DNA from: an uncultured Chromatiaceae bacterium
GTDB taxonomy: Bacteria; Pseudomonadota; Gammaproteobacteria; Tenderiales; Tenderiaceae
NCBI GenBank assembly: GCA_947085765.1
Contig: CAMTXZ010000031.1
Span: forward strand, 30,283-94,282
DNA: 64,000 nucleotides
Direction: 5' to 3'
Positions within the stretch are counted from its first letter, which is position 1. Each line of letters opens with the position of its first letter. A program made the position numbers and the translations under genes. This document shows positions 27,315 to 52,520 of this stretch, in pieces. The notes below the pieces were generated by a model. The model made no database searches, had not been told where the DNA came from, and worked only from the letters and a program-made list of their open reading frames with translations.

Positions 27315-27389
27315 ACGGCGCTGAAATAGCACTTGCTCCCCGCTTTTTTATCGTATATCTTGTGCCAAGGCTTCGGTTGAGACACAAGA

Positions 27390-27580
27390 TGTTGTGCTCA
27401 TGTCCATAGGGAACCCGGTGTAAATCCGGGACTGTCGCGCAGCGGTAAAGGGGAACAGAGACCACCGGCATTATGCCAGGCACCGTCCAGATAGACGGCA
27501 AGCTGTGGTCCGAGGTGAATCACTATCAGTGGTTCGTGCCCCTAAGTCCGAATACCTGCCGAGGCCGTCATCACAACCGT
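27390..27580 (+). ncRNA. Cobalamin (AdoCbl) riboswitch in the 5' leader of nrdAB
   Basis: …AUAGGGAACCCGGUGUAAAUCCGGGACUGUCGCGCAGCGGUAAAGGGGAAC… and the B12-box AAGUCCGAAUACCUGCCGAGGCC closely match the E. coli btuB riboswitch core (…AAUAGGGAAUCCAGUGCGAAUCUGGAGCUGACGCGCAGCGGUAAGGAAAGG…CCCGAAGACCUGCCGGCC). Confidence 0.85.
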
Positions 27581-27708: not shown

Positions 27709-30510
27709 ATGCAGACAGAACAGACAACCCGCCATACCCCCCAACCACGCCCGGACAACAGCGCACAGCTCTGCCATTGCGAGGTGATTCGCCGCAACGG
27801 CACACTCACCCATTTTAATGCCGACAAAATCAGCATCGCCCTCAGCCGTGCCTTTCTTGCCGTTGAAGGCCCGCAGGGCGAAGGGTCACGGCGCATCCAT
27901 GAGATTGTCGAACAGCTCAGCGACGAGATTGTTGCCGCGCTATTTCGCCGTCTGCCACACGGCGGCACACTGCACATCGAGGCGATTCAGGATCAGGTCG
28001 AACTGGCGCTGATGCGTAACGGCCACCACAAGATCGCCCGCGCTTACGTGCTCTACCGCGAGGAGCACGCCCGCCAGCGCGCCACGCAACAGCCCCCCGC
28101 GCAAGCGGCCCCCCTGCCTAACATCATTGGTAGCGACGGCAGCCGCGCCCCTCTCAACTTGGCACGACTCACCACGCTGATTGACGAGGCGTGCAGCGGC
28201 CTGGCCGATATCTCCAGCGAGCCGATTCTGCAGGCGACCCTGCACAACCTCTTTGATGGCATCACGGAAAAAGAGCTGGCGCAGGTGCTGGTGATGAGTG
28301 GCCGCAGCCTGATCGAACAGGAGCCAAACTACACCTTTGCCGCCGCCCGGCTACTGCTCGACAGCCTGCGTCAGGAGGCGTTGAGCTTTCTTGCCGGCCA
28401 CGCCGAGCGCGCCACCCAGGCTGAGATGACCAACCGCTACGCCGACTACTTCAGCAGCTACATCCACCGTGCCGCCGAACTGGAGCTGCTCGACAAGAGC
28501 CTGACCCGTTACGACCTGAAACGGTTAGGTGCGGCGCTACAGCCGGAGCGTGACCAGCAGTTCACCTATCTGGGACTGCAAACCCTTTATGACCGCTACT
28601 TTATTCACGCCGGCATCCACGGCAACAATAGCCGTTTTGAACTGCCACAAGCCTTTTTCATGCGGGTTGCCATGGGGCTGGCGATCAACGAAATCGACCG
28701 TGAGGCGCGGGCCATTGAGTTCTATGAGCTGCTCTCCTCGTTTGATTTCATCTGCTCAACCCCCACGCTGTTCAACTCGGGCACCCTGCGCCCGCAGCTC
28801 TCCTCCTGCTATCTCACCCACGTGCCCGACGACCTGGATGGCATCTACAGCGCCATCAAAGATAACGCCCTGCTCTCAAAATTTGCCGGCGGCCTGGGCA
28901 ATGACTGGAGCGCCGTGCGCGGTCTGGGCGCCGCCATCAAGGGGACCAACGGCACCTCGCAAGGGGTGGTGCCGTTTCTCAAGGTGGCCAACGACACCGC
29001 CGTGGCGGTCAACCAGGGTGGCAAACGTAAAGGGGCCGTCTGTGCCTACCTGGAGACGTGGCACATCGACATTGAGGAGTTTCTGGATCTGCGTAAAAAC
29101 ACCGGTGACGAACGGCGACGCACCCACGACATGAATACCGCCAACTGGATTCCTGACCTGTTTATGGAACGTGTCGGCGACGAAGCGCAGTGGACTCTCT
29201 TCTCCCCCGACGAGACCCCCGATCTGCATGACCTCTATGGCCAGCCATTCAAAAAACGCTACGAAGAGTACGAGGCCAAGGCCGACCGGGGCGAGATGAA
29301 GATCTGGAAACGACTGCCCGCCCTGGCGCTGTGGCGCAAGCTGCTCGGCCAACTGTTTGAGACCGGCCACCCCTGGATCACCTTCAAAGATAGCTGCAAC
29401 CTGCGCTATACCAATCAACACGCCGGGGTGGTGCACTCATCCAACCTCTGTACCGAGATCACGTTGCATACCAATAACAACGAGATTGCGGTCTGCAACC
29501 TCGGCTCCATCAACCTTGCCACCCATACCGGCGAGCATGGCATCGACCGCGAAAAGCTCGAACAGACCATCGACATCGCCATGCGTATGCTCGACAACGT
29601 CATCGACTACAACTACTACTCCGTACCCCAAGCACGCAACTCCAACCTGCGCCACCGCCCGGTGGGGCTGGGGCTGATGGGGTTTCAGGATGCCCTTTAT
29701 ATACAGAACATCCCCTACGCCTCAGAGGCGGCCATCGAGTTTGCCGACCACTCCATGGAGCTGATCGCCTACTACGCCATCCAGGCCTCAACCGATCTGG
29801 CGCAGGAGCGTGGCTGTTACTCCAGCTTTGCCGGCTCGCTCTGGAGCCGTGGCATCCTGCCGCTCGACTCGATTGAACTACAGGCCGCCGCCCGTGGCGA
29901 CTCGCTGGAGATGGATCGCAGCAGCCAGCTCGACTGGCACTCCCTGCGGCAGCGGGTGCAGACCGTTGGCATGCGTAACAGCAACTGTCTCGCCATCGCC
30001 CCCACGGCCACCATCGCCAACATCTGCGGCGTCTCGCAGTCGATTGAACCGGCCTTCCAGAACCTGTTTGTAAAATCCAACCTCTCCGGTGAGTTCACCG
30101 TGGTCAACCCCTATCTGGTCAAGGATCTGAAGGCGCTGGGGCTGTGGGACGAGGTAATGGTCAATGACCTGAAATATTTCGACGGTTCACTCCAGGCCAT
30201 CGACCGCATTCCCGCCCACCTGAAAGAGCGTTACGCCACCGCCTTCGAGATCGACCAGCGCTGGCTGATCGAGGCCGCCTCACGCCGCCAGAAGTGGATC
30301 GACCAGTCCCAGTCACTCAACCTCTACCTGGCGCAAGCCAGCGGCCCCACACTCGACAAGCTCTACAAACTGGCGTGGCGGCGTGGTCTGAAGACCACCT
30401 ACTACCTGCGCACACTCGGCGCCACCAAGATGGAGGGCAACAACCGTCAGACAGTGGCCGAACCAGCAGCCTGTTCGATCCTGGACCCCTCCTGCGAGGC
30501 GTGCCAGTAA
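27709..30510 (+). CDS. nrdA: Class Ia ribonucleoside-diphosphate reductase α subunit with extended N-terminus (two ATP-cone-like regions)
   Basis: 933 aa. An N-terminal ATP cone (VIRRNGTLTHFNADKISIALSRAF…) is followed by a second degenerate cone, then the RNR catalytic barrel (…NLCTEI…). Confidence 0.95.
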   Translation: MQTEQTTRHTPQPRPDNSAQLCHCEVIRRNGTLTHFNADKISIALSRAFLAVEGPQGEGSRRIHEIVEQLSDEIVAALFRRLPHGGTLHIEAIQDQVELALMRNGHHKIARAYVLYREEHARQRATQQPPAQAAPLPNIIGSDGSRAPLNLARLTTLIDEACSGLADISSEPILQATLHNLFDGITEKELAQVLVMSGRSLIEQEPNYTFAAARLLLDSLRQEALSFLAGHAERATQAEMTNRYADYFSSYIHRAAELELLDKSLTRYDLKRLGAALQPERDQQFTYLGLQTLYDRYFIHAGIHGNNSRFELPQAFFMRVAMGLAINEIDREARAIEFYELLSSFDFICSTPTLFNSGTLRPQLSSCYLTHVPDDLDGIYSAIKDNALLSKFAGGLGNDWSAVRGLGAAIKGTNGTSQGVVPFLKVANDTAVAVNQGGKRKGAVCAYLETWHIDIEEFLDLRKNTGDERRRTHDMNTANWIPDLFMERVGDEAQWTLFSPDETPDLHDLYGQPFKKRYEEYEAKADRGEMKIWKRLPALALWRKLLGQLFETGHPWITFKDSCNLRYTNQHAGVVHSSNLCTEITLHTNNNEIAVCNLGSINLATHTGEHGIDREKLEQTIDIAMRMLDNVIDYNYYSVPQARNSNLRHRPVGLGLMGFQDALYIQNIPYASEAAIEFADHSMELIAYYAIQASTDLAQERGCYSSFAGSLWSRGILPLDSIELQAAARGDSLEMDRSSQLDWHSLRQRVQTVGMRNSNCLAIAPTATIANICGVSQSIEPAFQNLFVKSNLSGEFTVVNPYLVKDLKALGLWDEVMVNDLKYFDGSLQAIDRIPAHLKERYATAFEIDQRWLIEAASRRQKWIDQSQSLNLYLAQASGPTLDKLYKLAWRRGLKTTYYLRTLGATKMEGNNRQTVAEPAACSILDPSCEACQ

Positions 30511-40612: not shown

Positions 40613-41383
40613 TTATTGATTCTCTGCAATCCAGATCAGCGACGCCATACGCCCCGTCACACCATCACGACGATAGGAGTAGAAGCGCTCGGTATCGCTA
40701 TAAGTGCAGCAACCACCACCGTAGACCGCCGTCACACCGACCACTTCAAGCCGCTGCCGCGCCAGCTGGTAAATATCTGCCAACCAACGGCCACCAGGTG
40801 ATGGCTTGAATGCTGCGGCGGCAACGGCATCATGGGCGATAAAGGCATCACGCACCTCATTGCCCACTTCAAACGCAGAGGGGCCAATGGCCGGACCAAG
40901 CCAGACCAGCAGGTCGGTAGCGGCCACCCCCATGCGCAATAGCGTCGCCTCGATCACACCATCGAGCAGCCCGCGCCAACCGGCATGGGCAGCGGCGACC
41001 ACTGTGCCCTGCCGGTTACAGAAGAGCAGTGGCAGACAGTCCGCCGTCATCACGGCACAGACCACATCTATAGAGTGAGTAAAACTGGCATCGGCCGCAG
41101 CCGCAACCCCGGGCACCGTGGCGGCGTTGACCACCGCCACACCGTGAACCTGCTGCAACCATACCGGCTCACCGGGCAGCTGCTGGCGCAGACGGCTGCG
41201 GTTTTCTACCACCGCCGCAGGCAGATCACCTACATGGTCACCCAGATTGAGGCTTGTATAGGGGGCCAGACTAACGCCGCCCTGACGGGTGGTGCTGGCG
41301 GCCCGGATTGAGGCAGGGGCGGGCCAGTCAGGCACAATCCAGCCAAAATCCGTTAGGTCAGTCACGCTGCTCGGCATCCTCAT
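40613..41383 (-). CDS. pgeF: YfiH/PgeF family purine nucleoside phosphorylase (laccase-domain protein)
   Basis: 256 aa. Conserved motifs …ADCLPLLF… and …AHAGWRG…. It lies downstream of rluD, as in E. coli. Confidence 0.85.
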   Translation of the reverse strand: MRMPSSVTDLTDFGWIVPDWPAPASIRAASTTRQGGVSLAPYTSLNLGDHVGDLPAAVVENRSRLRQQLPGEPVWLQQVHGVAVVNAATVPGVAAAADASFTHSIDVVCAVMTADCLPLLFCNRQGTVVAAAHAGWRGLLDGVIEATLLRMGVAATDLLVWLGPAIGPSAFEVGNEVRDAFIAHDAVAAAAFKPSPGGRWLADIYQLARQRLEVVGVTAVYGGGCCTYSDTERFYSYRRDGVTGRMASLIWIAENQ

Positions 41384-42317
41384 GCAACAGCGCGATCAGC
41401 TGCTGCATGTCGTCGGGCAGCGGCGCCTCCCACTCCATGATCTTGCCAGTAGTGGGGTGCTCCAGTCCGAGACGGGCGGCGTGCAGCGCCTGACGTTTGA
41501 AGTTACGCAGAAAGTCGCTCAGCTCGGCACTGCAATCACGCGGTAGCCGCAGCCGCTGACCGTAGACCGGATCACCGACCAGTGGATAGTGGATGTGGGC
41601 CATGTGCACACGGATCTGATGGGTGCGGCCGGTTTCAAGATCAACACGGATGTGGGTGTGGATACGGAACCGCTGCATCACCCGGTAGTGGGTCACCGCC
41701 GGTTTACCGTTGGAGACCACCGCCATCCGTTTGCGATCAACGGGGTGGCGGGCGATCGGCGCCTCCACCGTACCGCCCGCCGTCATCACCCCGTAGGCCA
41801 CCGCTTGGTACTGACGCTTCATCACCCGCGCCTGCAAAATATCCACCAGATGTTTTTGCGCCTTGAGGTTACGCGCCACCGCCAGCAGGCCGCTGGTCTC
41901 TTTGTCCAGGCGATGCACGATACCGGCACGCGGCACCTCGTTGAGTTCCGGGGCGTGATACAACAGGGCGTTGACCAGGGTGCCATCGTAGTTACCCGCC
42001 GCCGGGTGCACCACCATGCCAGCCGGCTTGTTGACGATGATGATGTCGTCATCTTCGTAGACGATGGTGAGCGGGATATCCTCGCCCTGCCAGCTCACCT
42101 CCTCCTCCGAGGTCGCCTCCAGCTCAATCAGCTCGCCGCCCTCCAGTTTGTCCTTGGCGCGCCGCTGCTGGCCGTTGACAGAGACCTGCCCCGCCTTGAT
42201 CCACTGCTGCAGGCGGGCGCGTGAATAATCCGGGAACAGTTGGGCGAGGATCTGGTCCAACCGTTGGCCAAAACAGTCGGCCGGGACTTTAATTGTTAGA
42301 TGTTCTGAAGATGGCAT
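41358..42317 (-). CDS. rluD: 23S rRNA pseudouridine(1911/1915/1917) synthase
   Basis: 319 aa. N-terminal S4 domain and the RluA-family catalytic motif (HRLDKETSG). Confidence 0.9.
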   Translation of the reverse strand: MPSSEHLTIKVPADCFGQRLDQILAQLFPDYSRARLQQWIKAGQVSVNGQQRRAKDKLEGGELIELEATSEEEVSWQGEDIPLTIVYEDDDIIIVNKPAGMVVHPAAGNYDGTLVNALLYHAPELNEVPRAGIVHRLDKETSGLLAVARNLKAQKHLVDILQARVMKRQYQAVAYGVMTAGGTVEAPIARHPVDRKRMAVVSNGKPAVTHYRVMQRFRIHTHIRVDLETGRTHQIRVHMAHIHYPLVGDPVYGQRLRLPRDCSAELSDFLRNFKRQALHAARLGLEHPTTGKIMEWEAPLPDDMQQLIALLHEDAEQRD

Positions 42318-42402
42318 TGGTTTTCACACAAAACAGGGCAATATGCCGTGCTAAAAAGGGGATCCATGCTAACAGATTTGAACCGCATTCCCCTGCAAAA
42401 TA

Positions 42403-43761
42403 GTGGCATACTGGCGCGATATTGATTCACCATTGATGGTTAACTTAATAATGCAGATACGCAGACAGCTGTCCGCCTTACTCCTCACAGCCGGGTTAAG
42501 CTTCTCCAGCTATGCCGCAGATAACGGGATACTGGCCGAGTACAACTACTACGAAAGCGGCAAAATCGAACTCAATGCCGGCAACTATCAGCAGGCCATC
42601 ACCCACTTCATCAACCTGCAAAAGCTCTACCCCAACAGCCCCTATATTCCCCAGGCCAAATTGGAGAGCGCCTACGCCCATTACAAACTGGGTGAAGCTC
42701 AGGCCGCCATCGACCTGCTACAGGAGTTTTTACTGGCCGAGAATAAACATCCACAAAAACCCTACGCCTTCTATCTCGCTGGCTTGGCCAGGTATCAGCA
42801 GGCACTCGATCTGATGGATAGCCCTACCTCTGCTGAAGATACCACTAGCGCCCGCACCGCCACCCAACAGGCCATCGGCTACTTTACTCAGTTGCTGGAC
42901 AGTTTCCCCGGCAGTCAGTACGGCGAGGATATTGGTAAAAAGACCACCTACCTGCTGGAAAAACTGGTACAGCAACGCATTAAGCTGGAGAAGAAGGATA
43001 CCGACCGCAGCCGCCTGCAACAGATTCAGGTCGAAAGCGACCAAGCCATAGTCTGGCTGCTGAAACAGCCTGCCAACCACTACACACTGCAACTGGTGCG
43101 CAGCCCTGACTACAACACCACCTTTATGGTCTCACTCCAGTATAAATTGGAAAAAAACGCCTTTATCATCGAGACACAGACCAGCGACGGCACAGGTTAC
43201 ACACTGCTTTACGGCGTCTACCCCAGCAAAAACGAGGCGCTGCAGGCAGGCGCCAATCTGCCCCAAGCCATCCTTGAGACCCAGCCGCTGGTGCGCGAAC
43301 TCAGCTCGGTGCAGACAGAGATCGTCGATAGCCGCGTGATTGCGGGCGACAGCACGCTACAAGCCCCGCCTCCCACCACAGCAGAAACAGCACCAGCGAG
43401 CCAGGAGTTCGTCAAGCCACCCCCAAGCAACAGCGCCACGCAGATGTCGGACGAAGAGTGGCTGTTGTCACAACACCCCATGGACTACACGGTGCAACTG
43501 TTGGGAGCGCCTAACGAAGCTAGCCTGACCAAATTCATCAACGACCACAATCTTGCCGGCCAAACCGTCCGCTACCGCAGTCTGCGCCGGGATGGCAGCA
43601 GCTGGTACTCACTGCTGTATGGCAGTTATCCCGACAATATCACCGCCATCGAAGCCGCGCGCCAGATCGGCATCAGCCTCCGTATCGATCAACCCTGGAT
43701 CAGACGTTTCCAGAGTGTGCAGAACGAAATCGACAGCAGCAAAAGCAGTAAACGCCAGTGA
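42403..43761 (+). CDS. BamD-like TPR protein fused to two C-terminal SPOR (peptidoglycan-binding) domains
   Basis: The N-terminal roughly 200 aa are homologous to BamD (…YPNSPYIPQAKLESAYAHYKLGE…). The C-terminus carries two SPOR-like repeats (…HYTLQLVRSPD…GYTLLYGVYPSKNEA…; …DYTVQLLGAPNEASL…WYSLLYGSYPD…). Signal peptide but no lipobox. It is divergent from rluD, the canonical bamD position. Confidence 0.65.
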   Translation: MAYWRDIDSPLMVNLIMQIRRQLSALLLTAGLSFSSYAADNGILAEYNYYESGKIELNAGNYQQAITHFINLQKLYPNSPYIPQAKLESAYAHYKLGEAQAAIDLLQEFLLAENKHPQKPYAFYLAGLARYQQALDLMDSPTSAEDTTSARTATQQAIGYFTQLLDSFPGSQYGEDIGKKTTYLLEKLVQQRIKLEKKDTDRSRLQQIQVESDQAIVWLLKQPANHYTLQLVRSPDYNTTFMVSLQYKLEKNAFIIETQTSDGTGYTLLYGVYPSKNEALQAGANLPQAILETQPLVRELSSVQTEIVDSRVIAGDSTLQAPPPTTAETAPASQEFVKPPPSNSATQMSDEEWLLSQHPMDYTVQLLGAPNEASLTKFINDHNLAGQTVRYRSLRRDGSSWYSLLYGSYPDNITAIEAARQIGISLRIDQPWIRRFQSVQNEIDSSKSSKRQ

Positions 43762-44765
43762 GCAAACCTCTCTGCCGTTCACTCATCACCCTGCTCTTTG
43801 GCATCACCCTACTCACTGGCTGCGTCACCGTACCTCCACAACCAGATGCCACACCAGCGCCACAACCCGACATCTGGTCCGCGCAACGCTACTACGACGA
43901 AGCGCGTCAGGCCCAGGCCAATGGCGATTTCAGCAGCGCACTCACGCAACTTGCCGAACTTCAACAGCGCTACCCCGACAGCGCTTACACCAAACTGGTC
44001 GCGCTGGAGAGTAGCTACGCCCATTACAAAATCGCAGATTATCCGGCCGCCATCCAGGCCGCTGACCGGTTCATTGCCCAACAAGCAAACGCCAGCGCTG
44101 CGGATTACGCCTGGTACCTGAAGGGCATGGCCCACCTCAACCTTGCTGGCCAAAACAGTACAAACAGCGCCACATTTGATTCCGACAACAGCCGCACGGC
44201 CTACCAGAGCCTGCTCCATTTGGCGCAAGCGTTTCCCAACAGCCCGTATCGAACCGAGGCACTGCAACAGCTACAGCCGCTGCGCACCCAGCTGGCGGAA
44301 CACGAACTCGACATCACCTATGCCCTGCTGCAACAGGGCAACCAACAGGGTGCGCGTGATCGCGCCGCCTATCTGCTCAAGAGTTACCCGGAGACAACGG
44401 CCGCCAATACAGCACAGCTCATCCTGCAAAGTGGCAATGCCAACACCATCCACCCCGAGGGGTTGCAGCACGAAAAGTGGCTGATGCAGCAGAACCCTAA
44501 CCACTTCACCCTCCAGATTGCCGGTAGCCACGACAAACAGTGGCTTGATAAGTTAGTCGCCCAGCACTCCCAACAGATCGTCTGGTTCCAGCGCCTCTGG
44601 CAAGGACAACCGTGGTATACCGTGCTCTATGGCCACTACAACAGCGCCGCTGAAGCAGAGGCGGCCATGCCTGCTGTCAAATCAACCCTGGTGGTTAACG
44701 AAGCCTGGGTACAGCCATTTTCGACCATACAACAGCGCCTTCACGACACCGATGCCAACCGCTGA
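43758..44765 (+). CDS. BamD-like lipoprotein with one C-terminal SPOR-like domain
   Basis: Lipobox LLTGC. BamD-homologous TPR region (…YPDSAYTKLVALESSYAHYKIAD…). C-terminal …HFTLQIAGSHD…WYTVLYGHYNSAAEAE…. The start overlaps the upstream stop. Confidence 0.65.
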   Translation: MSKPLCRSLITLLFGITLLTGCVTVPPQPDATPAPQPDIWSAQRYYDEARQAQANGDFSSALTQLAELQQRYPDSAYTKLVALESSYAHYKIADYPAAIQAADRFIAQQANASAADYAWYLKGMAHLNLAGQNSTNSATFDSDNSRTAYQSLLHLAQAFPNSPYRTEALQQLQPLRTQLAEHELDITYALLQQGNQQGARDRAAYLLKSYPETTAANTAQLILQSGNANTIHPEGLQHEKWLMQQNPNHFTLQIAGSHDKQWLDKLVAQHSQQIVWFQRLWQGQPWYTVLYGHYNSAAEAEAAMPAVKSTLVVNEAWVQPFSTIQQRLHDTDANR

Positions 44766-44841
44766 AGCTGCGACAAGCCAACCCCGGTTATGCTAGGCTA
44801 CGACACCAATAATCAAGACCATCACAACACTGAAACAGCCG

Positions 44842-45594
44842 ATGTCACTCATAAAATCACTCACCTCACTGTTCCTCATCACCCTGCTGCTGGTCGGTTG
44901 CGCCACCACCGACCTCGACCCCAGCACATGGCCCGCCGAGCGCTTTTACAAAGAGGCCAAACAGGCCCTTAATGACCGCGACTACGAAATCGCCATCAAG
45001 CGTTATGAAGACCTGGAGATCCACCACCCCTTCAGCCCTTATACCCAACAGGCACAGCTGGAGGTGGGTTACGCCTACTTCAAATATGACGAGCCGGACT
45101 CTGCCATCGCCGCCGCCGAGCGCTACATCAAACTCTACCCACGTGCCGACAATGTCGACTACGCCTACTATCTGCGCGGACTGGTAAGCTTCGAACGCGG
45201 CCTCAGCACGTTCGACCTCGCACTGGGTCTCGACATCACCAAACGGGAACCCAAATCAGCCAAAAATGCCTTTTTCTATTTTGAAGAGCTGGTCAAACGT
45301 TACCCCAATAGCCCATATGCCGAAGATGCCAAACGGCGCATGGTCGATCTGCGCAACCGCCTCGCCACCTATGAGATGCACGTTGCCGACTACTACATGC
45401 GCCGTGGTGCCTATCTCTCCGCCGCCAACCGCTGCCAGGAGGTGCTGGAAAACTACCCGCAGACCCCAGCCATTCCCGACGCCCTGGTGATGATGGTGCA
45501 GGCCTACCGCGAACTCGGCATTGACGACCTGGCCGAAGATACACGCAAGGTGCTCCAGCTCAACTATCCCGACAGGCTCAGTGCATTAAAGTGA
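44842..45594 (+). CDS. bamD: Outer membrane protein assembly factor BamD (canonical length)
   Basis: 250 aa. Lipobox LLVGC; TPR lipoprotein with …HPFSPYTQQAQLEVGYAYFKYDE… and …YPNSPYAEDAKRRMVDLRNRLA…. Confidence 0.8.
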   Translation: MSLIKSLTSLFLITLLLVGCATTDLDPSTWPAERFYKEAKQALNDRDYEIAIKRYEDLEIHHPFSPYTQQAQLEVGYAYFKYDEPDSAIAAAERYIKLYPRADNVDYAYYLRGLVSFERGLSTFDLALGLDITKREPKSAKNAFFYFEELVKRYPNSPYAEDAKRRMVDLRNRLATYEMHVADYYMRRGAYLSAANRCQEVLENYPQTPAIPDALVMMVQAYRELGIDDLAEDTRKVLQLNYPDRLSALK

Positions 45595-45668
45595 AAGTCC
45601 GATTAAAGTGTTGATATAGAGACGAAGCACAAGTAGCAAATTCAGATAAAAGCAGAGGAGAACAATCT

Positions 45669-46193
45669 ATGTGGGATTTTTTTGAAACCGTTCGTCACCG
45701 CCACTCCGTCCGCTGTTACCAGAGCGACATGCCGGTAGAAAAAGAAAAACTGCACGCCATCCTTGAAACCGCCTGCAGCGCTCCATCAGCCGGCGACTTG
45801 CAGGCCTATAAAATCATCGTTGTCAGCAACCCGGAAAAGCGCCAGGCGCTCGCCAATGCCGCCGAAGGGCAGAGCTTCATCTCCGCAGCGCCAGTCTGTC
45901 TTGTCTTCTGCGCTGATCCACAACGCTCCGCCACCCAGTATGGCGAACGCGGCCAGAAACTCTACGCCGTCCAGGACACCACCATCGCCGCCGCCTACGC
46001 CCAACTCGCCGTTGTTGCTGCGGGCATGGGCTCCACCTGGGTCGGTTACTTCGATGAAGAGAAGGTCCGGACTATTCTCCAGATCGACAGCAACCTCAAC
46101 CCCATCGCCATGCTCAGCCTCGGCTACCCGGCCGAACTGCCCGAGCCAACCAAACGCCGCCGGCTGGACGAGATCGTCAGCCATATCGAATAA
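45669..46193 (+). CDS. Nitroreductase family protein
   Basis: 174 aa. …RHSVRCY…SAPSAGDLQAYKIIVV… is the FMN-dependent nitroreductase fold signature. Confidence 0.8.
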   Translation: MWDFFETVRHRHSVRCYQSDMPVEKEKLHAILETACSAPSAGDLQAYKIIVVSNPEKRQALANAAEGQSFISAAPVCLVFCADPQRSATQYGERGQKLYAVQDTTIAAAYAQLAVVAAGMGSTWVGYFDEEKVRTILQIDSNLNPIAMLSLGYPAELPEPTKRRRLDEIVSHIE

Positions 46194-46285
46194 AGCCAAA
46201 CACGCTTCACCATCCCCCATCCCCCACCACCAGAGCCGTGAGGATGGTGAAGCGCTACAAATGCAAAGCACTACACTACACTACA

Positions 46286-47185
46286 CTACAGCGCCACAGC
46301 TTCCTCCACCTGGCGCATGTTTTTTACCTGTAAAGAATCACTCAGCGCATCCAGCGCAGCACCCACCTCATAATCAAACGCAATGGTCACGTAATCACCC
46401 GCACTCACCGCCATCGGCTCGGCAAGTGGAACAATCAGATACTGGTTATACCAATCAACCGTACGTTGCTCAGCCATCAATATTGCAAGGATGTTTTTTG
46501 TCACCATACGAATAGCGTTTAAGTTGCCATCCCTGGCAATCTTTATCGTTCCATCAAAACTGCATCGCTGCGGTAGCTCGGCATCATAAGTAAAACTCTG
46601 GAATAACGCCGGGTCACTCAACTCACGACTCTTTTCATGGGTAACGGTAGGCTCCTGAAACAGGATCGTCTGGGCGTAATAACCCTCAAAATTAAAATCC
46701 TGCTCAATCGGCTGCACCGCCTGGATACACGCCTCCGGCACAAAGATTGGCAATGGGCCGCCAAACCTCTCCAGATAGCGCTGTTTAAACTGAGCAATCA
46801 TCGCAACCTGTTTTTCACGCAGTAACCCCACATGTAACATTTCACAAATCACCACATCAACAGGCTCAGGCGGAAGATAACGGCTTGCATCCGCCTGAAC
46901 AATCTCCACCCTATCGCCATTTGTGTTCTGGCGCATAATGCGCCGTACAGCCGCCACCAGCTCGGGATTTCGCTCCACACACCAAACATGCCCCGCCTGC
47001 TGCGCCGCAAAAAAAGATAACACCCCGGTGCCGCCACCCAACTCCAACACCCGCGCACCTGGCCGCACCACCTCTTGCAAGGCACGCTTAAAACCCTGCA
47101 TCCGTGCAGTATCATTCAACATGTTGTAATGATATTGCAGCGGGATAAACTGACCCAACTCCAAGTGGTCATATCGGTTGTTCAT
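46286..47185 (-). CDS. PRMT-like class I SAM-dependent methyltransferase (protein arginine N-methyltransferase homolog)
   Basis: …YHYNMLNDTARMQGFKRAL…VLELGGGTGVLSFFAAQ…VDVVICEMLH… matches PRMT motifs (pre-I, I VLD/EVGxGxG, post-I, THW-like region). Likely start MNNRYDHLELG at 47185; the ORF track extends to 47302. Confidence 0.65.
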   Translation of the reverse strand: MNNRYDHLELGQFIPLQYHYNMLNDTARMQGFKRALQEVVRPGARVLELGGGTGVLSFFAAQQAGHVWCVERNPELVAAVRRIMRQNTNGDRVEIVQADASRYLPPEPVDVVICEMLHVGLLREKQVAMIAQFKQRYLERFGGPLPIFVPEACIQAVQPIEQDFNFEGYYAQTILFQEPTVTHEKSRELSDPALFQSFTYDAELPQRCSFDGTIKIARDGNLNAIRMVTKNILAILMAEQRTVDWYNQYLIVPLAEPMAVSAGDYVTIAFDYEVGAALDALSDSLQVKNMRQVEEAVAL

Positions 47186-47433
47186 ACACACTCCTCGATC
47201 AGATTGATTGCAAACAGCCATCACCAGCGGAGTCGTTCGACTCACCACCACATGCCGGCCATCGTCTTCATAACGCAAGGTGCGGGCCAACCAGAAAAAC
47301 ATGCTGGATCGAGGGTGTAACCGCCTTATGACGGCAAGTAGTTGCCGTAACGATTAAAGAAGGATGGCAAGGGCGGAGAAGAGTTGCCTAATCAAGAGAG
47401 CGCTTCAAGGGTAAATACACCTCACAATACCGA

Positions 47434-47679
47434 ATGAGATCACCGCAGACCAATAGTACCTGTGAACGTTTCCATCAGACCATCTTGCAGGGGTTCTATC
47501 AAATCACCTCCCGCAAGAAGATCTATGCTGATCTGGAAACACTACAGGCCGATCTGGACATCTGGCTGACGCACTACAACAATGAACAGAGACATCAGGG
47601 CAAGATGTGCTGTGGCCAAACGCCGATGGCAACGTTGAAGGAGAGTAAAAAAATCTGGCAGGAAAAATCTGTGAACTGA
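47434..47679 (+). mobile_element. C-terminal fragment of a DDE transposase/integrase (IS481/IS3-like rve core remnant)
   Basis: 81 aa. …SPQTNSTCERFHQTILQGFYQ…WLTHYNNEQRHQGKMCCGQTP… matches the conserved C-terminal end of rve-family transposases (SPQTNGxxERFxxTL…YNxxRxHxxL…TP). The N-terminal catalytic part is absent. Confidence 0.6.
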
Positions 47680-47848
47680 ATTTGACCTGACAGTCACTTC
47701 CGAAAAATCGGTAACTGTCAGATCAGGTCGCGACTACTACAAATGAGGGAAGGCAGCTTGCGGCCAGGAGCGGACTTCAAAACTGACAAGAATACGACTC
47801 GCAAGCCTTTTTGACTTACAATCAACCTGTGGAACTAGCCAATAATAT

Positions 47849-48757
47849 TTACAGCTTCAATGTAAAATTAACCTCGACACCACTAGCAGGCCTATCAACA
47901 GGCACCTCACTATACCCTGAAGAAACACGCCAAACTGGTAGGTTAGGATATAACTCTTTTCCTAAAATGACAGAAAGTACTGCAAGTATTTTGGGACCCA
48001 ATGGAATAATCAGTGGTCGTGAGAATTTATTTAGTGATTGAACCAATGACTTTAAATCTAAATATGTAGAATATGGCTGACATACATCATAGAAAAACAC
48101 ATTATCACTTGATATTGAATCTAATAGGTCTTTGTTATTATCTACAACATCGGTTTCAAATTTGGTAACAGGGCTTTTAGGAATAAAGGTATAAATAAAA
48201 CCTGAATCCAAGAAGTTAGCAACCCCAAGGGCCTTGCTCTTTTCATAACCAAGACCGAATATCACCGAAGTAGGAAGAGATGGATCACCAATGGATCCTC
48301 CAAGCTGAGAAGTTATCTCACAAAGATACTTTATTGGCGTATCTTCATTTGGCGGCGGGATATAATCAGACAAGGTGTACACAACACTTAAAGTGGAATG
48401 TTCAGGGAGCGAATCCATTAAGCTGCAAATAATACAAGCCAACCTATGTCGACTCATAACAGTAATGTCTAACAACACATTTACTGGCCCATCAAAATTT
48501 TTTCCGAATAAAAATCCATCAACATGCCTGCTAACAGACTCATCACCATGCTCTATAATATTAGCTTTAGACTCCAAGTATTTGGATTTATTTACTTGGT
48601 AAGAAAATTTATCGGTATTAATATCATAACCAATGACCAATAATTCTGAGCAATCACTGCCATATTTATCAAATGCAGATATAGCTCTAGACTCAAAGCC
48701 AAGCCCAAAAATTGCCAAATCAAACTCCCCACCAATGAATGATTTTAATATTTTCAT
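47849..48757 (-). CDS. Hypothetical protein, last gene of a four-gene island operon (no family recognised)
   Basis: 302-aa ORF, AT-rich codon usage. The start overlaps the upstream gene stop (48754-48757). Confidence 0.6.
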   Translation of the reverse strand: MKILKSFIGGEFDLAIFGLGFESRAISAFDKYGSDCSELLVIGYDINTDKFSYQVNKSKYLESKANIIEHGDESVSRHVDGFLFGKNFDGPVNVLLDITVMSRHRLACIICSLMDSLPEHSTLSVVYTLSDYIPPPNEDTPIKYLCEITSQLGGSIGDPSLPTSVIFGLGYEKSKALGVANFLDSGFIYTFIPKSPVTKFETDVVDNNKDLLDSISSDNVFFYDVCQPYSTYLDLKSLVQSLNKFSRPLIIPLGPKILAVLSVILGKELYPNLPVWRVSSGYSEVPVDRPASGVEVNFTLKL

Positions 48758-50571
48758 AGCAAGTCTATTTGTTTATTGTTTTCGGCTAGGTCAACGACCT
48801 TAATCACAGAAGACCGTGGATTACTCCTCTTAAGCAGATCAACAAGTTCAATTTCTCTAGGTTTGGTAGTTAATAAGCCAAAACGATGTGAAAATAAGTA
48901 TGACAACCTGCACCGTGCCTTTCTAAGGTCCTTGAAATCATGAAATGGCTCATCAGAATTTTTAACAATAATCAACGCGCCGGCATTCAATGCAAAGCCA
49001 ACAGCGGCTAAATAGCCGATATTTTCATCTTTTTTAAAGGTAAGTGTCCCTTTTGGCTCAGGACAAAACTGTGCCCCTACAATTTCTTCTTTAAAAGATG
49101 TTGCGATAGTTTCAATCAGATCGAAAATCGTATTGTATGAGTTATCATCTGAAGAAATAGCAATTGTTCTTAACAAAGCATTGTAAGACCTGAATGTATC
49201 ATTTAAACATTCAAGCTGAGAGGTAATTGGAATCGTTTTCTTTTCCTTCACTATAGATATGAACTTATTAATAAGTCCGATAAGCATCCTAGGATTATAT
49301 TCCATTGCCTTGCATAAATTCGAAAAACCAACATAACTATCAGGGGGTCTCTTTCGGCTAGCTAATCCACTTTCTTTCCTGTAGTAATTTCTAAGATGGG
49401 CTACAAATTTAATCTTTCTAACTGTTGGCCCCTTGTTTTTATCGCCATAATTGCGGATGTCGTCAATATTTATTCTTTGATCATCCAGGTACTCTTTAAA
49501 GGTCAAATCTTTTTCTGAAAGCTCTCTAAAAGTGTCTTCTACGCTAAAAGGCTTAGGCTCTTCGAAGTAACTCTCAATATCATCGTTCAAATTGTTTTTC
49601 TTGAAAATGTTAGAGCAAAGCTTTTTAGAGAACTCAAGGCCCATTTTGTCAGAATTACCGGTGAGGTTAATAAAGGAGAGATCTTGATTGCTCATCGAGC
49701 TATCTGAGCACTTAGTCACCTCTAAATTCTTATGGTATGGCGATAATGATAATTTAAAAATAACATCTTCTGGCCCACCTCGCATCGAATCCACAAGAGG
49801 CTGGATAATCTCTTCAGGCGCCAGTTCTAATTCATCGAATAAAAAAGACCACTTATGACCGCACTCATTAAAATAAGAATTTACTATTCTAGTACTTGCC
49901 CCAAGAATAGATGATATTCCACCGGTGACAATGTCCGGTTTATTAATATGGCCTATAGTTTTTCTATCAAGCGACGAAGTTATATAGTCTGAAACTTCCT
50001 TTTTCTTATTTGTTACGGAAACCTCTAGACTTCGCAATGAACAGATCTTAGGACTCACATGCCACAACTGTGCTAACTCACCAACCAATTCAGCCTCATC
50101 AACCTTTTTTATGACTACAGACTTAAAATTATTCTTCTTCCTTGGTGCCTGAGCAACGCGATATCCAATAGTGGAAGCCATTCTTTCAAGTGTGTGGTAG
50201 ACAAAAATCGACTCAAGTAAACGTCCTCCTTCCTCTATGCTTCCTACTTTATCTTTTATAATATCAAACTGCGTTTTCCAAAACCGATCGGTAGGAATGA
50301 AAACACCAGAAAAAGATATTGAGTTCCTGAATTTCGGGGCACTTGAATCATTCCAGATTTCCAACGCCTCAACTTGAAGCATCCGCATCAGAGTGGTTTT
50401 TCCACTACCTCTAGGTCCAATCATTATTGTATGATTGGATGAAGCTAAATTCTGGAAGTGCTCACTAACGATAAAAGAATCGCACAGCTCTTGAGTTGTA
50501 AGCGTTCGAGCATTAAATGATTCATATATTGATGGTGCTTTTTCAAACATTACGCTTACCCACCTCAACAA
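48754..50571 (-). CDS. Large P-loop NTPase (Walker A GPRGSGKTT, candidate Walker B LFDELE), third gene of island operon
   Basis: 605 aa. Walker A at residues 52-59. An hhhhDE motif about 190 aa downstream suggests ABC/RecF-like rather than AAA+ spacing. Long C-terminal region of unknown function. It overlaps the upstream gene by 29 nt. Confidence 0.7.
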   Translation of the reverse strand: MLRWVSVMFEKAPSIYESFNARTLTTQELCDSFIVSEHFQNLASSNHTIMIGPRGSGKTTLMRMLQVEALEIWNDSSAPKFRNSISFSGVFIPTDRFWKTQFDIIKDKVGSIEEGGRLLESIFVYHTLERMASTIGYRVAQAPRKKNNFKSVVIKKVDEAELVGELAQLWHVSPKICSLRSLEVSVTNKKKEVSDYITSSLDRKTIGHINKPDIVTGGISSILGASTRIVNSYFNECGHKWSFLFDELELAPEEIIQPLVDSMRGGPEDVIFKLSLSPYHKNLEVTKCSDSSMSNQDLSFINLTGNSDKMGLEFSKKLCSNIFKKNNLNDDIESYFEEPKPFSVEDTFRELSEKDLTFKEYLDDQRINIDDIRNYGDKNKGPTVRKIKFVAHLRNYYRKESGLASRKRPPDSYVGFSNLCKAMEYNPRMLIGLINKFISIVKEKKTIPITSQLECLNDTFRSYNALLRTIAISSDDNSYNTIFDLIETIATSFKEEIVGAQFCPEPKGTLTFKKDENIGYLAAVGFALNAGALIIVKNSDEPFHDFKDLRKARCRLSYLFSHRFGLLTTKPREIELVDLLKRSNPRSSVIKVVDLAENNKQIDLL

Positions 50572-51733
50572 TTACATTGCACTTATGGTCTACAGACAAT
50601 CCATTTTCTTCAAGCTCTCTCACAAGACTATTGAAATCATGCGGCGTGAAGTTGGCTGCCAGGTCATGAAATTGAGATAAGTCTTGTTCATTTAGGTAAG
50701 GATTGCTTTCAGATATTAAGGCAGTAATTTTGTCAGCTACGGCCTTTGGTGTTATGGCACTCCCAAATCCACTTTTAGCAGGAAGGTTTGATGATGTTGA
50801 CTCCCCCCATTTTAACCCTCTAAGGCGTTCATGTGTCTCAAGTGTTCCAACTGCTTTTCCTTCAGAAATACATTTATCCAAATCAATCTCAATTATGTAA
50901 AATTGATTTGAAGTACGGTCTTCAATTCCGCCATGCAATCTTGCTGAAATGCTTCCGGATGAAAATATTACATATGGATTCATGCCTGGCGCAGGAGCAT
51001 ATGTAACATCTGCAAAATGCTTGTGCCCATGAATTACTAGCCACGGCCCTTTGTTTGCACCATGTAATTTATGGAGTAGATATTGTCCACCTTGCATGCA
51101 CTCATTATCTTCTGACCTGTCTACATGTTCCATTTTTTGTGGGTGATGGTGACATAAAAGAATATTGATTGGCTTTTTCACAAAAAATTGTGAAGAAATG
51201 AATTTACTAATTTGATCGGCAACGTCACTGGAAATTCGACCATGTGCTCCTTCATCATTAAAGCCATGATATGCGCTGGTATTTAATGATATGGCGTTGT
51301 AGCTTAGGATCTTTCCTTCTGAATGACACCAATGCCAAGCCCAAAAATGTGTATTTTTTTCACTGCAATCGAATGGGAAGCTAGGTTGAATAAACTGTAA
51401 TTGGTGCTTGGGATCATAAATGCTTTCTGTTCTCGACTGGTGATCATGATTTCCTGGCACACACAAGAGCTCAGGAATATTCAACTCATCTTTTACTCTT
51501 CTGACAAAATTCCATCCAGCAATAAAACAATCTTGTTCAGCTTGATTTGCTATATCACCAGCACAAATTAGAACGTCAATATCATGATCTAGTTTTTTCA
51601 CGTAATTTATGAATGCATTTCCATATTCGCTTTCGCCATTGTTAAAATAAAGATGTGAGTCTGTTTTTTTTGACGAGTCAACAATTGCGTGAAGATCGGA
51701 AATTACCAGCAGCCTTAATTTGTTATTATTCAT
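50543..51733 (-). CDS. Calcineurin-like metallophosphoesterase (Mre11/SbcD-like motif set), second gene of island operon
   Basis: 396 aa. Motifs ISDLHA (I), CAGDIAN (II), VPGNHDH (III), CHHHP (IV), IHGHKH (V). C-terminal extension of about 120 aa. Confidence 0.8.
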   Translation of the reverse strand: MNNNKLRLLVISDLHAIVDSSKKTDSHLYFNNGESEYGNAFINYVKKLDHDIDVLICAGDIANQAEQDCFIAGWNFVRRVKDELNIPELLCVPGNHDHQSRTESIYDPKHQLQFIQPSFPFDCSEKNTHFWAWHWCHSEGKILSYNAISLNTSAYHGFNDEGAHGRISSDVADQISKFISSQFFVKKPINILLCHHHPQKMEHVDRSEDNECMQGGQYLLHKLHGANKGPWLVIHGHKHFADVTYAPAPGMNPYVIFSSGSISARLHGGIEDRTSNQFYIIEIDLDKCISEGKAVGTLETHERLRGLKWGESTSSNLPAKSGFGSAITPKAVADKITALISESNPYLNEQDLSQFHDLAANFTPHDFNSLVRELEENGLSVDHKCNVIVEVGKRNV

Positions 51734-52520
51734 AATTTTTCACTAAGATCTCTTCAACCTCATTCCATGTGGTTTTGAAGCCTGAGATATGACGCTTCAC
51801 TGATAATGTTTGGACTGTAAAGTCTTTTGATAATAATTCGATGACGTCTTTGCAGGCACGATATGAGAACAGGAATTTAACACCTTTGCTATTCAAGTCA
51901 TACAAGCCTTTAAAGAGGACTGGTAAATTTTCAATATTAAAACTCCCAGGACCATATTCGCCAGTAAACTTCTCTGACTTTGAATACGGTGGGTCTATAT
52001 ATACAAAATCCCCTTCCTTTAGTTTTCGCAAGGTTTCAGTATAATCAGCAACAATTATCTCAGTGTTATAAAGCTTTTTTCTTGCCAAGTTAAACACATC
52101 TTGGGAGGGAAATCCGCCAGTTCTAGAGCCTCTTGGCACATTAAATTTACCTGCTTTATTTGTGCGATACACACCATTAAAACAGTAACGATTAAGATAT
52201 AAGAAACGCACCGCACGTTCTGCTTTACTCAGCGCATCCGGATCAAGCCCTCTTATCCTATAATATTCATCATCAGTATCAGGAATTTGGATCAGACTCT
52301 CCCGAATATTTTGATTGACCTTTATCTCACTCAAAGCATTAATCAATTCAAAGTTTATATCTGACAATAAAGCCTCGTAGACATTCACCTCAAAAAACAG
52401 ACATGCCGAACCGCAGAATGGCTCAACATAACGTTCGAAAGTTTTTGGAATACTTTGTGTTAACACAGGCAGAAGCTTTCGTTTACTACCTGCCCATCTT
52501 ATTAACGGTTTACTTTGCAA
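51726..52520 (-). CDS. Dam-family (D12 class) DNA N6-adenine methyltransferase, first gene of island operon
   Basis: 264 aa. IRWAGSKRKLLPVL, EPFCGSACLFF (motif I), YIDPPY (motif IV DPPY). Confidence 0.85.
   Translation of the reverse strand: MQSKPLIRWAGSKRKLLPVLTQSIPKTFERYVEPFCGSACLFFEVNVYEALLSDINFELINALSEIKVNQNIRESLIQIPDTDDEYYRIRGLDPDALSKAERAVRFLYLNRYCFNGVYRTNKAGKFNVPRGSRTGGFPSQDVFNLARKKLYNTEIIVADYTETLRKLKEGDFVYIDPPYSKSEKFTGEYGPGSFNIENLPVLFKGLYDLNSKGVKFLFSYRACKDVIELLSKDFTVQTLSVKRHISGFKTTWNEVEEILVKNYE

Follow-up and report, generated by a model that had tools for sequence, protein, structure and literature searches.

In the machinery that assembles outer-membrane proteins (BAM), BamD is usually regarded as an essential core subunit encoded by a single gene copy, and the locus described here raises the question of what three consecutive BamD-like genes, two of them extended by SPOR peptidoglycan-binding domains, are doing at a single bamD position. 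The locus is carried by a 64,000-nucleotide stretch of DNA, referred to below as the window, from an uncultured Chromatiaceae bacterium of the family Tenderiaceae (GenBank assembly GCA_947085765.1, contig CAMTXZ010000031.1, positions 30,283 to 94,282 of the forward strand), and all coordinates are those of the window. The genes, which we call P1, P2 and P3, were delimited as follows, where TPR stands for tetratricopeptide repeat and aa for amino acids.

42451-43761, plus strand: P1, 436 aa, BamD N-terminal half, first SPOR domain (SPOR1), disordered linker and second SPOR domain (SPOR2); secreted, without a lipobox
43758-44765, plus strand: P2, 335-aa lipoprotein in which a full five-TPR BamD fold is joined by a short linker to a single SPOR domain
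44842-45594, plus strand: P3, canonical BamD lipoprotein of 250 aa, lipobox LLVGC

All three products were assigned to the BamD family. The Pfam model YfiO (PF13525, curated cut-off 25 bits) matched P3 over its full profile (positions 5-201 of 203, 230.8 bits, 1.7e-68), P2 over positions 5-186 (126.6 bits, 1.5e-36) and P1 over positions 7-155 (100.6 bits, 1.3e-28), while the 81.4-bit cut-off of the NCBIfam BamD model TIGR03302 was exceeded by P3, P2 and P1 with 283.2, 156.2 and 102.8 bits respectively. The TPR parts were mutually homologous by BLASTP at 25-30% identity (E = 7e-19 for P1/P2, 8e-20 for P1/P3 and 2e-32 for P2/P3). SPOR matches (PF05036, cut-off 21 bits) were found in two stretches of P1 (39.5 bits, 7.5e-10) and in one stretch of P2 (34.1 bits, 3.5e-08). 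The original prediction, made from the letters of the DNA and a list of open reading frames (ORFs), had described three mutually homologous genes divergent from rluD in the canonical bamD position, the third a standard 250-aa BamD lipoprotein and the second a 335-aa protein with one SPOR domain. Pfam, TIGR03302 and BLASTP agreed on the homology, and both families scored above their curated cut-offs. The first gene had been described as a 452-aa protein with two SPOR domains; the two domains were recovered by Pfam and in the structural model below, but the length was not. The ORF is open from a GTG at 42403 (42403-43761), whereas alignment of orthologues placed the start at ATG 42451 or ATG 42436, giving 436-441 aa.

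The array occupies the canonical bamD locus, which is marked by a divergent gene common to every related locus examined.

41358-42317, minus strand: rluD, 23S rRNA pseudouridine synthase (Pfam PseudoU_synth_2 9e-34, S4 3.2e-11)

P1, P2 and P3 are co-directional and likely form a single transcription unit, since the GTG start of P2 overlaps the P1 stop codon (GTGA), the gap between P2 and P3 is 76 bp and no terminator-like site was found on the plus strand within 42200-46300.

P1 joins a partial BamD to two SPOR domains, with the following features.

42451-42516, plus strand: signal peptide, aa 1-22, cleaved between MQIRRQLSALLLTAGLSFSSYA and AD, signal peptidase I type, without a lipobox Cys
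42523-42990, plus strand: BamD-like TPR region, aa 25-180, with TPR1-3 and one helix but not TPR4b-5
43045-43323, plus strand: SPOR1, aa 199-291, a divergent SPOR domain
43351-43440, plus strand: linker, aa 301-330, disordered, Pro/Ala/Thr/Ser-rich
43450-43731, plus strand: SPOR2, aa 334-427, a DamX-type SPOR domain

The signal peptide is of Sec type and ends in SYA before the AD, where the N-termini of the orthologues align, most of them without a Cys. Signal peptides and lipoboxes were called by eye rather than by a dedicated predictor, and the calls agreed with the earlier claim of a signal peptide without lipobox in the first gene and lipoboxes in the second (LLTGC) and third. AlphaFold2 (AF2) models of P1 and P2 were built on family alignments. 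The P1 model had a mean predicted local distance difference test score (pLDDT) of 81, with helices over residues 25-180 and a further helix at 188-205, and its linker fell below 50 in pLDDT and varied in length and sequence among orthologues. P1 aligned to residues 34-189 only of Escherichia coli BamD, that is about 3.5 N-terminal TPRs, and both this alignment and the AF2 model ruled out P1 as a full BamD. The P1 alignment shows SPOR1 of the Tenderia-type P1 proteins at the place taken by TPR4b-5 in more distant fusions. The top Foldseek matches of the P1 model were BamD chains and the SPOR domain of DamX (2lfv, target-normalised template-modelling score (TM) 0.68).

P2 keeps the whole BamD fold between a lipid anchor and a single SPOR domain.

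43812-43823, plus strand: lipobox L-T-G-C, aa 19-22, Gly21 and Cys22 invariant in orthologues
43881-44432, plus strand: BamD-like TPR domain, aa 42-225, ten helices in the AF2 model
44469-44741, plus strand: SPOR domain, aa 238-328, retaining the beta3 Trp, the Gln of FTLQI and the beta4 Trp of AWVQPF

The residue at +2 is Val, not Asp. The P2 model (mean pLDDT 81) begins with a disordered, Pro-rich tether after the lipidated Cys, and its TPR part superposed on E. coli BamD (3q5m) in Foldseek with a root-mean-square deviation (rmsd) of 1.9 Å over 187 aligned columns (TM 0.79, 30% identity), covering E. coli residues 34-219 and the equivalent of R197. A short linker with one helix leads from there to the SPOR domain.

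All three SPOR domains were modelled with the beta-alpha-beta-beta-alpha-beta fold (ribonucleoprotein-like, RNP-like) at a pLDDT of about 80-90, and DamX 2lfv was the best sequence match in the PDB for each of them (E = 2e-08 for P1 SPOR1, 5.9e-05 for P1 SPOR2 and 3.4e-07 for P2). Together with the Foldseek match of P1, these results exclude the suggestion that the C-terminal regions might not fold as SPOR domains. In the P2 domain the strands span residues 250-257, 274-281, 284-294 and 316-320 and the helices 260-269 and 297-311; strands in P1 SPOR1 were placed at 211-218, 237-244, 247-257 and 280-283, and those of SPOR2, the best Pfam SPOR stretch in P1 (361-434 of the 452-aa ORF), between 346 and 419. 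For the septal localisation of DamX, Q351, a small residue at position 354 and W416 were shown to matter (PMC6895207). Their equivalents are Gln, Gly and Trp in both P1 SPOR2 and P2 SPOR. In P1 SPOR2 the Gln lies in YTVQL and the beta4 Trp in PWIRRF; the beta3 Trp is kept as well, and W and Q are invariant in the P1 alignment. P1 SPOR1 retains only the beta1 Gln: in it DamX-354 corresponds to Arg and DamX-416 to Leu, and the domain has no beta3 Trp anywhere in its orthogroup. SPOR1 formed a separate clade with 100% bootstrap in a neighbour-joining (NJ) tree and is well conserved among P1 orthologues; judged from the alignments it is probably functional, perhaps with altered specificity.

As a separate observation, the C-terminal half of P1 matched metagenome proteins of DamX-like and AAA-ATPase (PF13401) type with two linker-separated tandem SPOR domains (P0146, P0154-P0156, P0160-P0163, P0170 and P0176), the DamX-like ones at 30-35% identity. 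A double-SPOR cassette may have been exchanged between the P1 type and these families.

The array was found to be maintained beyond the window. The closest genome match was a metagenome-assembled genome of Candidatus Tenderia sp. (L001; Gammaproteobacteria, order Tenderiales), against which the ratio of nonsynonymous to synonymous substitution rates (dN/dS) was 0.17 for P1, 0.30 for P2 and 0.14 for P3, and all three genes are under purifying selection. The scan of genome contigs, made with a single protein, found this one close relative and otherwise ordinary BamDs. The three-gene array was present in that genome and in L011, L012, L013/L014 and L015/L016, in each case with rluD followed divergently by a half-BamD gene with two SPOR domains (about 435 aa), a BamD-SPOR gene (about 330 aa), a bamD gene (about 250-260 aa) and a nitroreductase gene. 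Identity across these arrays dropped to about 39% for P1 and about 35% for P2, both of which are old genes. The paralog phylogeny called for by the original prediction gave three clean orthogroups, since in an NJ tree of the shared TPR region the P1, P2 and P3 orthologues each grouped with 100% bootstrap. P3 clustered with canonical BamDs (97%), and the P1 clade was tentatively sister (70-80%) to the first-gene fusions of simpler arrays. These trees are crude, distance-based and built on short alignments, and reliance was placed on the 100%-supported orthogroups only, not on deeper branching.

Decaying duplicates or mis-called ORFs without function would account for the 25-30% identity between paralogs, the truncated BamD of P1 and the degenerate SPOR1. 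This explanation is exceedingly improbable given the dN/dS values, the confident AF2 folds, the conserved signal peptide and lipobox, the intact orthologues in at least five other contigs at identities down to about 34-60% and the number of fusion families in public data described below. A pseudogene or chance-ORF reading of P1 and P2, which the original prediction had named as a way in which it could fail, was thus ruled out by dN/dS, orthologue conservation and the confident folds.

A fusion-protein profile was searched against 1.84 billion representative proteins and the top matches were classified with custom BamD and SPOR hidden Markov models (HMMs). At least 55 clusters (50% identity) combined BamD with SPOR. 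In 47 of the 55 a full-length BamD was followed by SPOR, the linker between them having a median length of 57 aa and reaching about 149 aa; most have a lipobox, and 45 of these 47 had a single SPOR domain. The other eight carried a truncated BamD of the P1 type, seven of them with two SPOR domains and most without a lipobox. The window therefore holds one gene of each fusion class together with the canonical gene. Simpler arrangements were also observed. A BamD-SPOR gene followed by bamD stands beside rluD in four loci of more distant uncultured bacteria (L019, L020, L021 and L022), and a YfiO gene, a BamD-SPOR gene and bamD follow one another next to rluD in L017/L018. In L087 (3-2069) a P1-type gene with half a BamD and two SPOR domains directly precedes a canonical bamD, without a P2-type gene, on a contig too short to include rluD. 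The extra BamD paralog of L017 (5189-8128) is a 269-aa protein without SPOR, and by its TPR region it is the sister of the neighbouring fusion.

In every locus with a visible neighbourhood a fusion gene lies immediately upstream of a gene for a canonical-size BamD, even where the fusions have diverged to about 25% identity, and this retention beside bamD across deep divergence suggests selection for co-expression. As a control, 80 metagenome loci were fetched with the generic BamD motif DYA[YW]YL[KR]G. More than one BamD-like ORF was found in a single locus of the 80 (L087, itself with SPOR domains), and no second BamD-like ORF was found in the 29 control loci of at least 6 kb or in nine genome loci. 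The claim that the array departs from the usual single copy was upheld by this comparison, and the question of how widespread it is was addressed by the fusion clusters and by the several Tenderia-like loci with all three genes. In the Saccharospirillum genomes (L003-L008, around positions 7800-8810) single long BamD ORFs of about 280-330 codons from stop to stop were seen; these aligned to P2 past the TPR domain, up to residue 277, and had no SPOR match, which points to an uncharacterised C-terminal extension.

How far P1 and P2 have moved from canonical BamD was measured on 86 alignment columns that were at least 70% conserved among 163 canonical BamDs. The shares of these columns kept, overall, in the N-terminal part (E. 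coli 34-175) and in the C-terminal part (176-219), were as follows.

P3 orthologues: all 84%, N-terminal 82%, C-terminal 92%
P2 orthologues: all 54%, N-terminal 58%, C-terminal 37%
Other fusions: all 53%, N-terminal 57%, C-terminal 39%
P1 orthologues: all 43%, N-terminal 52%, C-terminal 13%

By this sequence measure the N-terminal BamD half is preferentially preserved in the paralogs. In E. coli BamD the residues Y184, R94, R97 and R197 contact BamA, and Y184 was measured to be a hot spot of this binding (PMC11592675); R197 forms a salt bridge with E373 of BamA and, like Y62, is a hot spot for substrate binding (PMC10945584). P3 keeps Y184/Y185, R94 and R197. Y184 and Y185, the latter invariant in canonical BamDs, are replaced in P2 (by Ala and Leu) and in the other fusions, while P1 is without the region that bears Y184/Y185 and R197. 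R94 is still present in the P2 of the window, but most P2 orthologues have Gln there; R197 is retained by 80% of the P2 orthologues and Y62 by both P1 and P2, although Y62, R49 and N60 are weak as a residue-level argument since canonical P3 itself differs at several of these positions. Canonical docking of P1 or P2 on POTRA5 of BamA is therefore doubtful.

These residues bear directly on whether P2, and perhaps P1, might replace BamD as an alternative core subunit in a subset of peptidoglycan-anchored, division-site-specific BAM complexes. P2 has the five-TPR fold, the lipid anchor and the R197 equivalent, exceeds the BamD family cut-off and is apparently co-transcribed with bamD, and peptidoglycan-binding BAM accessories are known in Caulobacter (Pal/YiaD; PMC3359395) and Neisseria (RmpM; PMC13067283). 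Replacement is nevertheless quite unlikely in view of the C-terminal, BamA-facing part of P2 with its 37% of conserved residues against 92% in P3, the loss of Y184 and Y185 and, in most P2 orthologues, of R94, the absence of TPR4b-5 and the lipid anchor from P1, and the canonical BamD kept beside the fusion in every locus examined.

We tentatively propose instead that P1 and P2 are peptidoglycan-anchored BamD-like modules that would act at denuded septal glycan and supplement BamD, a reading built from the sequences and models above. The original prediction had suggested, in cautious terms, that the fusions would couple a 'BAM-lipoprotein-like module' to septal or denuded peptidoglycan. P1 SPOR2 and P2 SPOR would bind denuded glycan strands, which amidases make mainly at the septum. 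P2 would bridge the outer membrane, through its lipid anchor, and the septal peptidoglycan, through SPOR, while P1 would sit on the peptidoglycan as a soluble periplasmic protein. The N-terminal BamD-like TPRs of both could bind unfolded segments of outer-membrane proteins or BAM components, and the net effect would be to concentrate the delivery or assembly of outer-membrane proteins, or BAM itself, where the wall splits. In this arrangement P1 and P2 would act alongside P3, which would keep its place in the BamA-BamD core, because most of the BamA-facing C-terminal signature residues are lost. In E. coli, BAM components bind peptidoglycan and outer-membrane proteins are inserted with a bias towards division sites, the state of the peptidoglycan controlling where BAM is active through weak wall binding of BAM subunits (PMC9242858); by analogy the proposed role would fit this peptidoglycan-BAM coupling.

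Several observations weigh against the proposal. Adjacency to bamD could be explained by an origin in tandem duplication, without any shared function, and the missing BamA-contact residues would fit a function unconnected with BAM just as well. P1 SPOR1 has kept none of the conserved glycan-contact residues but its Gln. Between TPR5 and SPOR of a close P2 orthologue (P0002), HMM boundaries gave an estimated linker of about 0 aa, against the family median of 57 aa, and so short a P2 linker makes it uncertain that an outer-membrane-tethered P2 would reach the peptidoglycan layer.

The first two of these points belong to a different explanation, in which P1 and P2 are BAM-independent division or envelope-tethering factors, the BamD TPR scaffold now serving a different partner, for instance peptidoglycan synthases or hydrolases or Tol-Pal. 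P2 would then resemble RlpA, or a connection of the Pal or CpoB type that ties outer membrane to peptidoglycan at the septum; P1 would resemble a periplasmic factor of the DamX/DedD type, and the bamD adjacency would be a mere relic of tandem duplication. Every SPOR protein that has been characterised has a role in division or morphogenesis (PMC6895207), and DamX and DedD stimulate class A penicillin-binding proteins (PMC7642682). The loss of 46-57% of BamD-conserved residues in the paralogs, Y184/Y185 among them, would suit such a role, as would the resemblance of the C-terminal half of P1 to double-SPOR DamX-like proteins, the presence of YbgF TPR structures among the fold matches and a weak similarity of P1 to the CpoB/YbgF model TIGR02795 (38.4 bits, 1.6e-09; P2 21.6 bits). 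Those scores lie far below the 90.1-bit cut-off of that model, however, and the similarity of the same two proteins to BamD is much stronger, with 102.8 and 156.2 bits; P2 keeps the BamD fold to 1.9 Å together with the substrate hot spots Y62 and R197; and the fusion stands directly upstream of bamD in all loci examined, a position that suggests selection for co-expression. On balance BAM independence is possible and somewhat unlikely.

A further reading, which we consider unlikely, is that the SPOR-tagged paralogs form a branch of outer-membrane protein biogenesis dedicated to the division site. P2, docked on BamA or beside it, would pin a subset of BAM to denuded septal glycan, and P1 would be a soluble, peptidoglycan-bound receptor that captures precursors of outer-membrane proteins through the substrate-binding half of BamD and hands them over. 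If true, this branch would be a hard-wired, genetically encoded form of the peptidoglycan-BAM coupling that is indirect in E. coli.

Set against known systems, the array combines familiar parts in an unfamiliar way. Like BamD (YfiO/ComL; TIGR03302, PF13525), all three proteins score above the family cut-off from the shared rluD-divergent position; P3 is typical, P2 has the lipobox, the five-TPR fold, Y62 and R197, and P1 shares TPR1-3. Unlike BamD, P1 and P2 end in SPOR domains found on no described BamD, have lost about half of the family-conserved residues, with Y184 and Y185, and coexist with a canonical BamD instead of being single copy, while P1 is also without the lipid anchor and TPR4b-5. 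The SPOR domains are of DamX kind (PF05036), with DamX as best PDB match, the RNP-like fold and the Q351/W416 equivalents in P1 SPOR2 and P2 SPOR, and the tandem double SPOR of P1 recurs in DamX-like proteins of related metagenomes. The N-terminal module of P1 and P2 is a BamD-like TPR region, in contrast to the transmembrane or cytoplasmic segment of DamX, DedD and FtsN, and the DamX equivalog model NF008153 matched only their C-terminal SPOR part, where 56.2 and 26.5 bits fall far short of its cut-off of 256 bits. RlpA is an outer-membrane lipoprotein, and like P2 it has a C-terminal SPOR domain, but the N-terminal module of P1 and P2 is not a lytic transglycosylase domain as in RlpA.

CpoB coordinates peptidoglycan synthesis with outer-membrane constriction and is encoded in the tol-pal locus, unlike P1 and P2 at the bamD locus. 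CpoB/YbgF is a short periplasmic TPR protein with a recognised similarity to BamD (PMC3359395), and P1 is likewise Sec-exported without a lipobox. CpoB does not bind peptidoglycan (PMC9242858). It has no SPOR domain, and P1 and P2 are far below the cut-off of its family model. Pal/YiaD- and RmpM-type partners of BAM bind peptidoglycan through OmpA-like domains. In concept, Pal/YiaD on the Caulobacter BAM (PMC3359395) and RmpM on the Neisseria BAM (PMC13067283) are alike in placing a peptidoglycan-binding module on the outer-membrane protein assembly machinery, and the extra periplasmic subunits of the Bacteroidetes BAM were grouped with them as near known systems. Those partners are separate proteins, whereas here a BamD paralog, as a putative partner of BAM, is covalently joined to a SPOR domain, a type of domain with specificity for denuded glycan. 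None of the nearest known systems joins a BamD-family module and SPOR in one polypeptide, and none is a maintained array of BamD paralogs.

The few public names attached to the fusion proteins are 'outer membrane protein assembly factor BamD' or 'YfiO', and a plain BamD annotation hides both fusion and paralogy. No description of BamD-SPOR fusions or BamD paralogs was found in the searchable literature: a systematic survey of BAM lipoproteins reported duplication for BamC only, and a 2026 review of BAM mentions neither. The arrays, built from two well-known modules, are thus apparently undescribed. Their interest lies in BamD-like modules fused directly to a domain for denuded, mostly septal glycan and retained next to bamD throughout a sizeable uncultured lineage. 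Should the paralogs work with BAM, they would offer a natural, dissectable case of spatial coupling between wall splitting and outer-membrane biogenesis and a ready-made tool in the form of septally tagged BamD halves. Otherwise, the BamD fold has been re-used for a new envelope function.

Downstream of the array follows a gene that is found in the same position in L001, L011, L013, L015, L019, L020 and L022.

45669-46193, plus strand: nitroreductase-family gene (Pfam Nitroreductase 4.6e-27)

This gene is possibly part of the transcription unit of the array, and no functional link to it is evident. The rest of the 64-kb window was inspected for other BAM or division genes, and only housekeeping genes and a defence-type island were found, with no gene for BamA among them. 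Between the nitroreductase gene and the island, a 338-aa S-adenosylmethionine-dependent methyltransferase (46286-47302, minus strand) partially matched the PADLOC model mad2 (9.2e-18). No methyltransferase was seen there in the related loci with gene lists reaching past the nitroreductase gene, several of which have P-II and NAD synthase genes in its place.

The island itself (47434-52520) lies downstream of the array and its nitroreductase gene, at a distance of about 1.2 kb, and has a GC content of 35-45% against about 58% in its flanks. It includes an integrase-core fragment (rve_3), a D12-class N6-adenine DNA methyltransferase, a CARF6-family protein (PADLOC PDLC01918, 4.7e-117), an ORC/CDC6-like ATPase (PF24389, 2.7e-97) and a calcineurin-like phosphoesterase with a winged helix-turn-helix domain. 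From its composition it looks like a horizontally acquired island of defence type.

At some distance on the other side of the array, a cobalamin riboswitch (RF00174, 73.7 bits) was identified at 27357-27577 on the plus strand, directly 5' of a gene (27709-30510) for a 933-aa ribonucleotide reductase large subunit with an ATP-cone and the ribonucleotide reductase barrel. Its placement directly before the reductase gene suggests that this enzyme is repressed in a B12-dependent manner.

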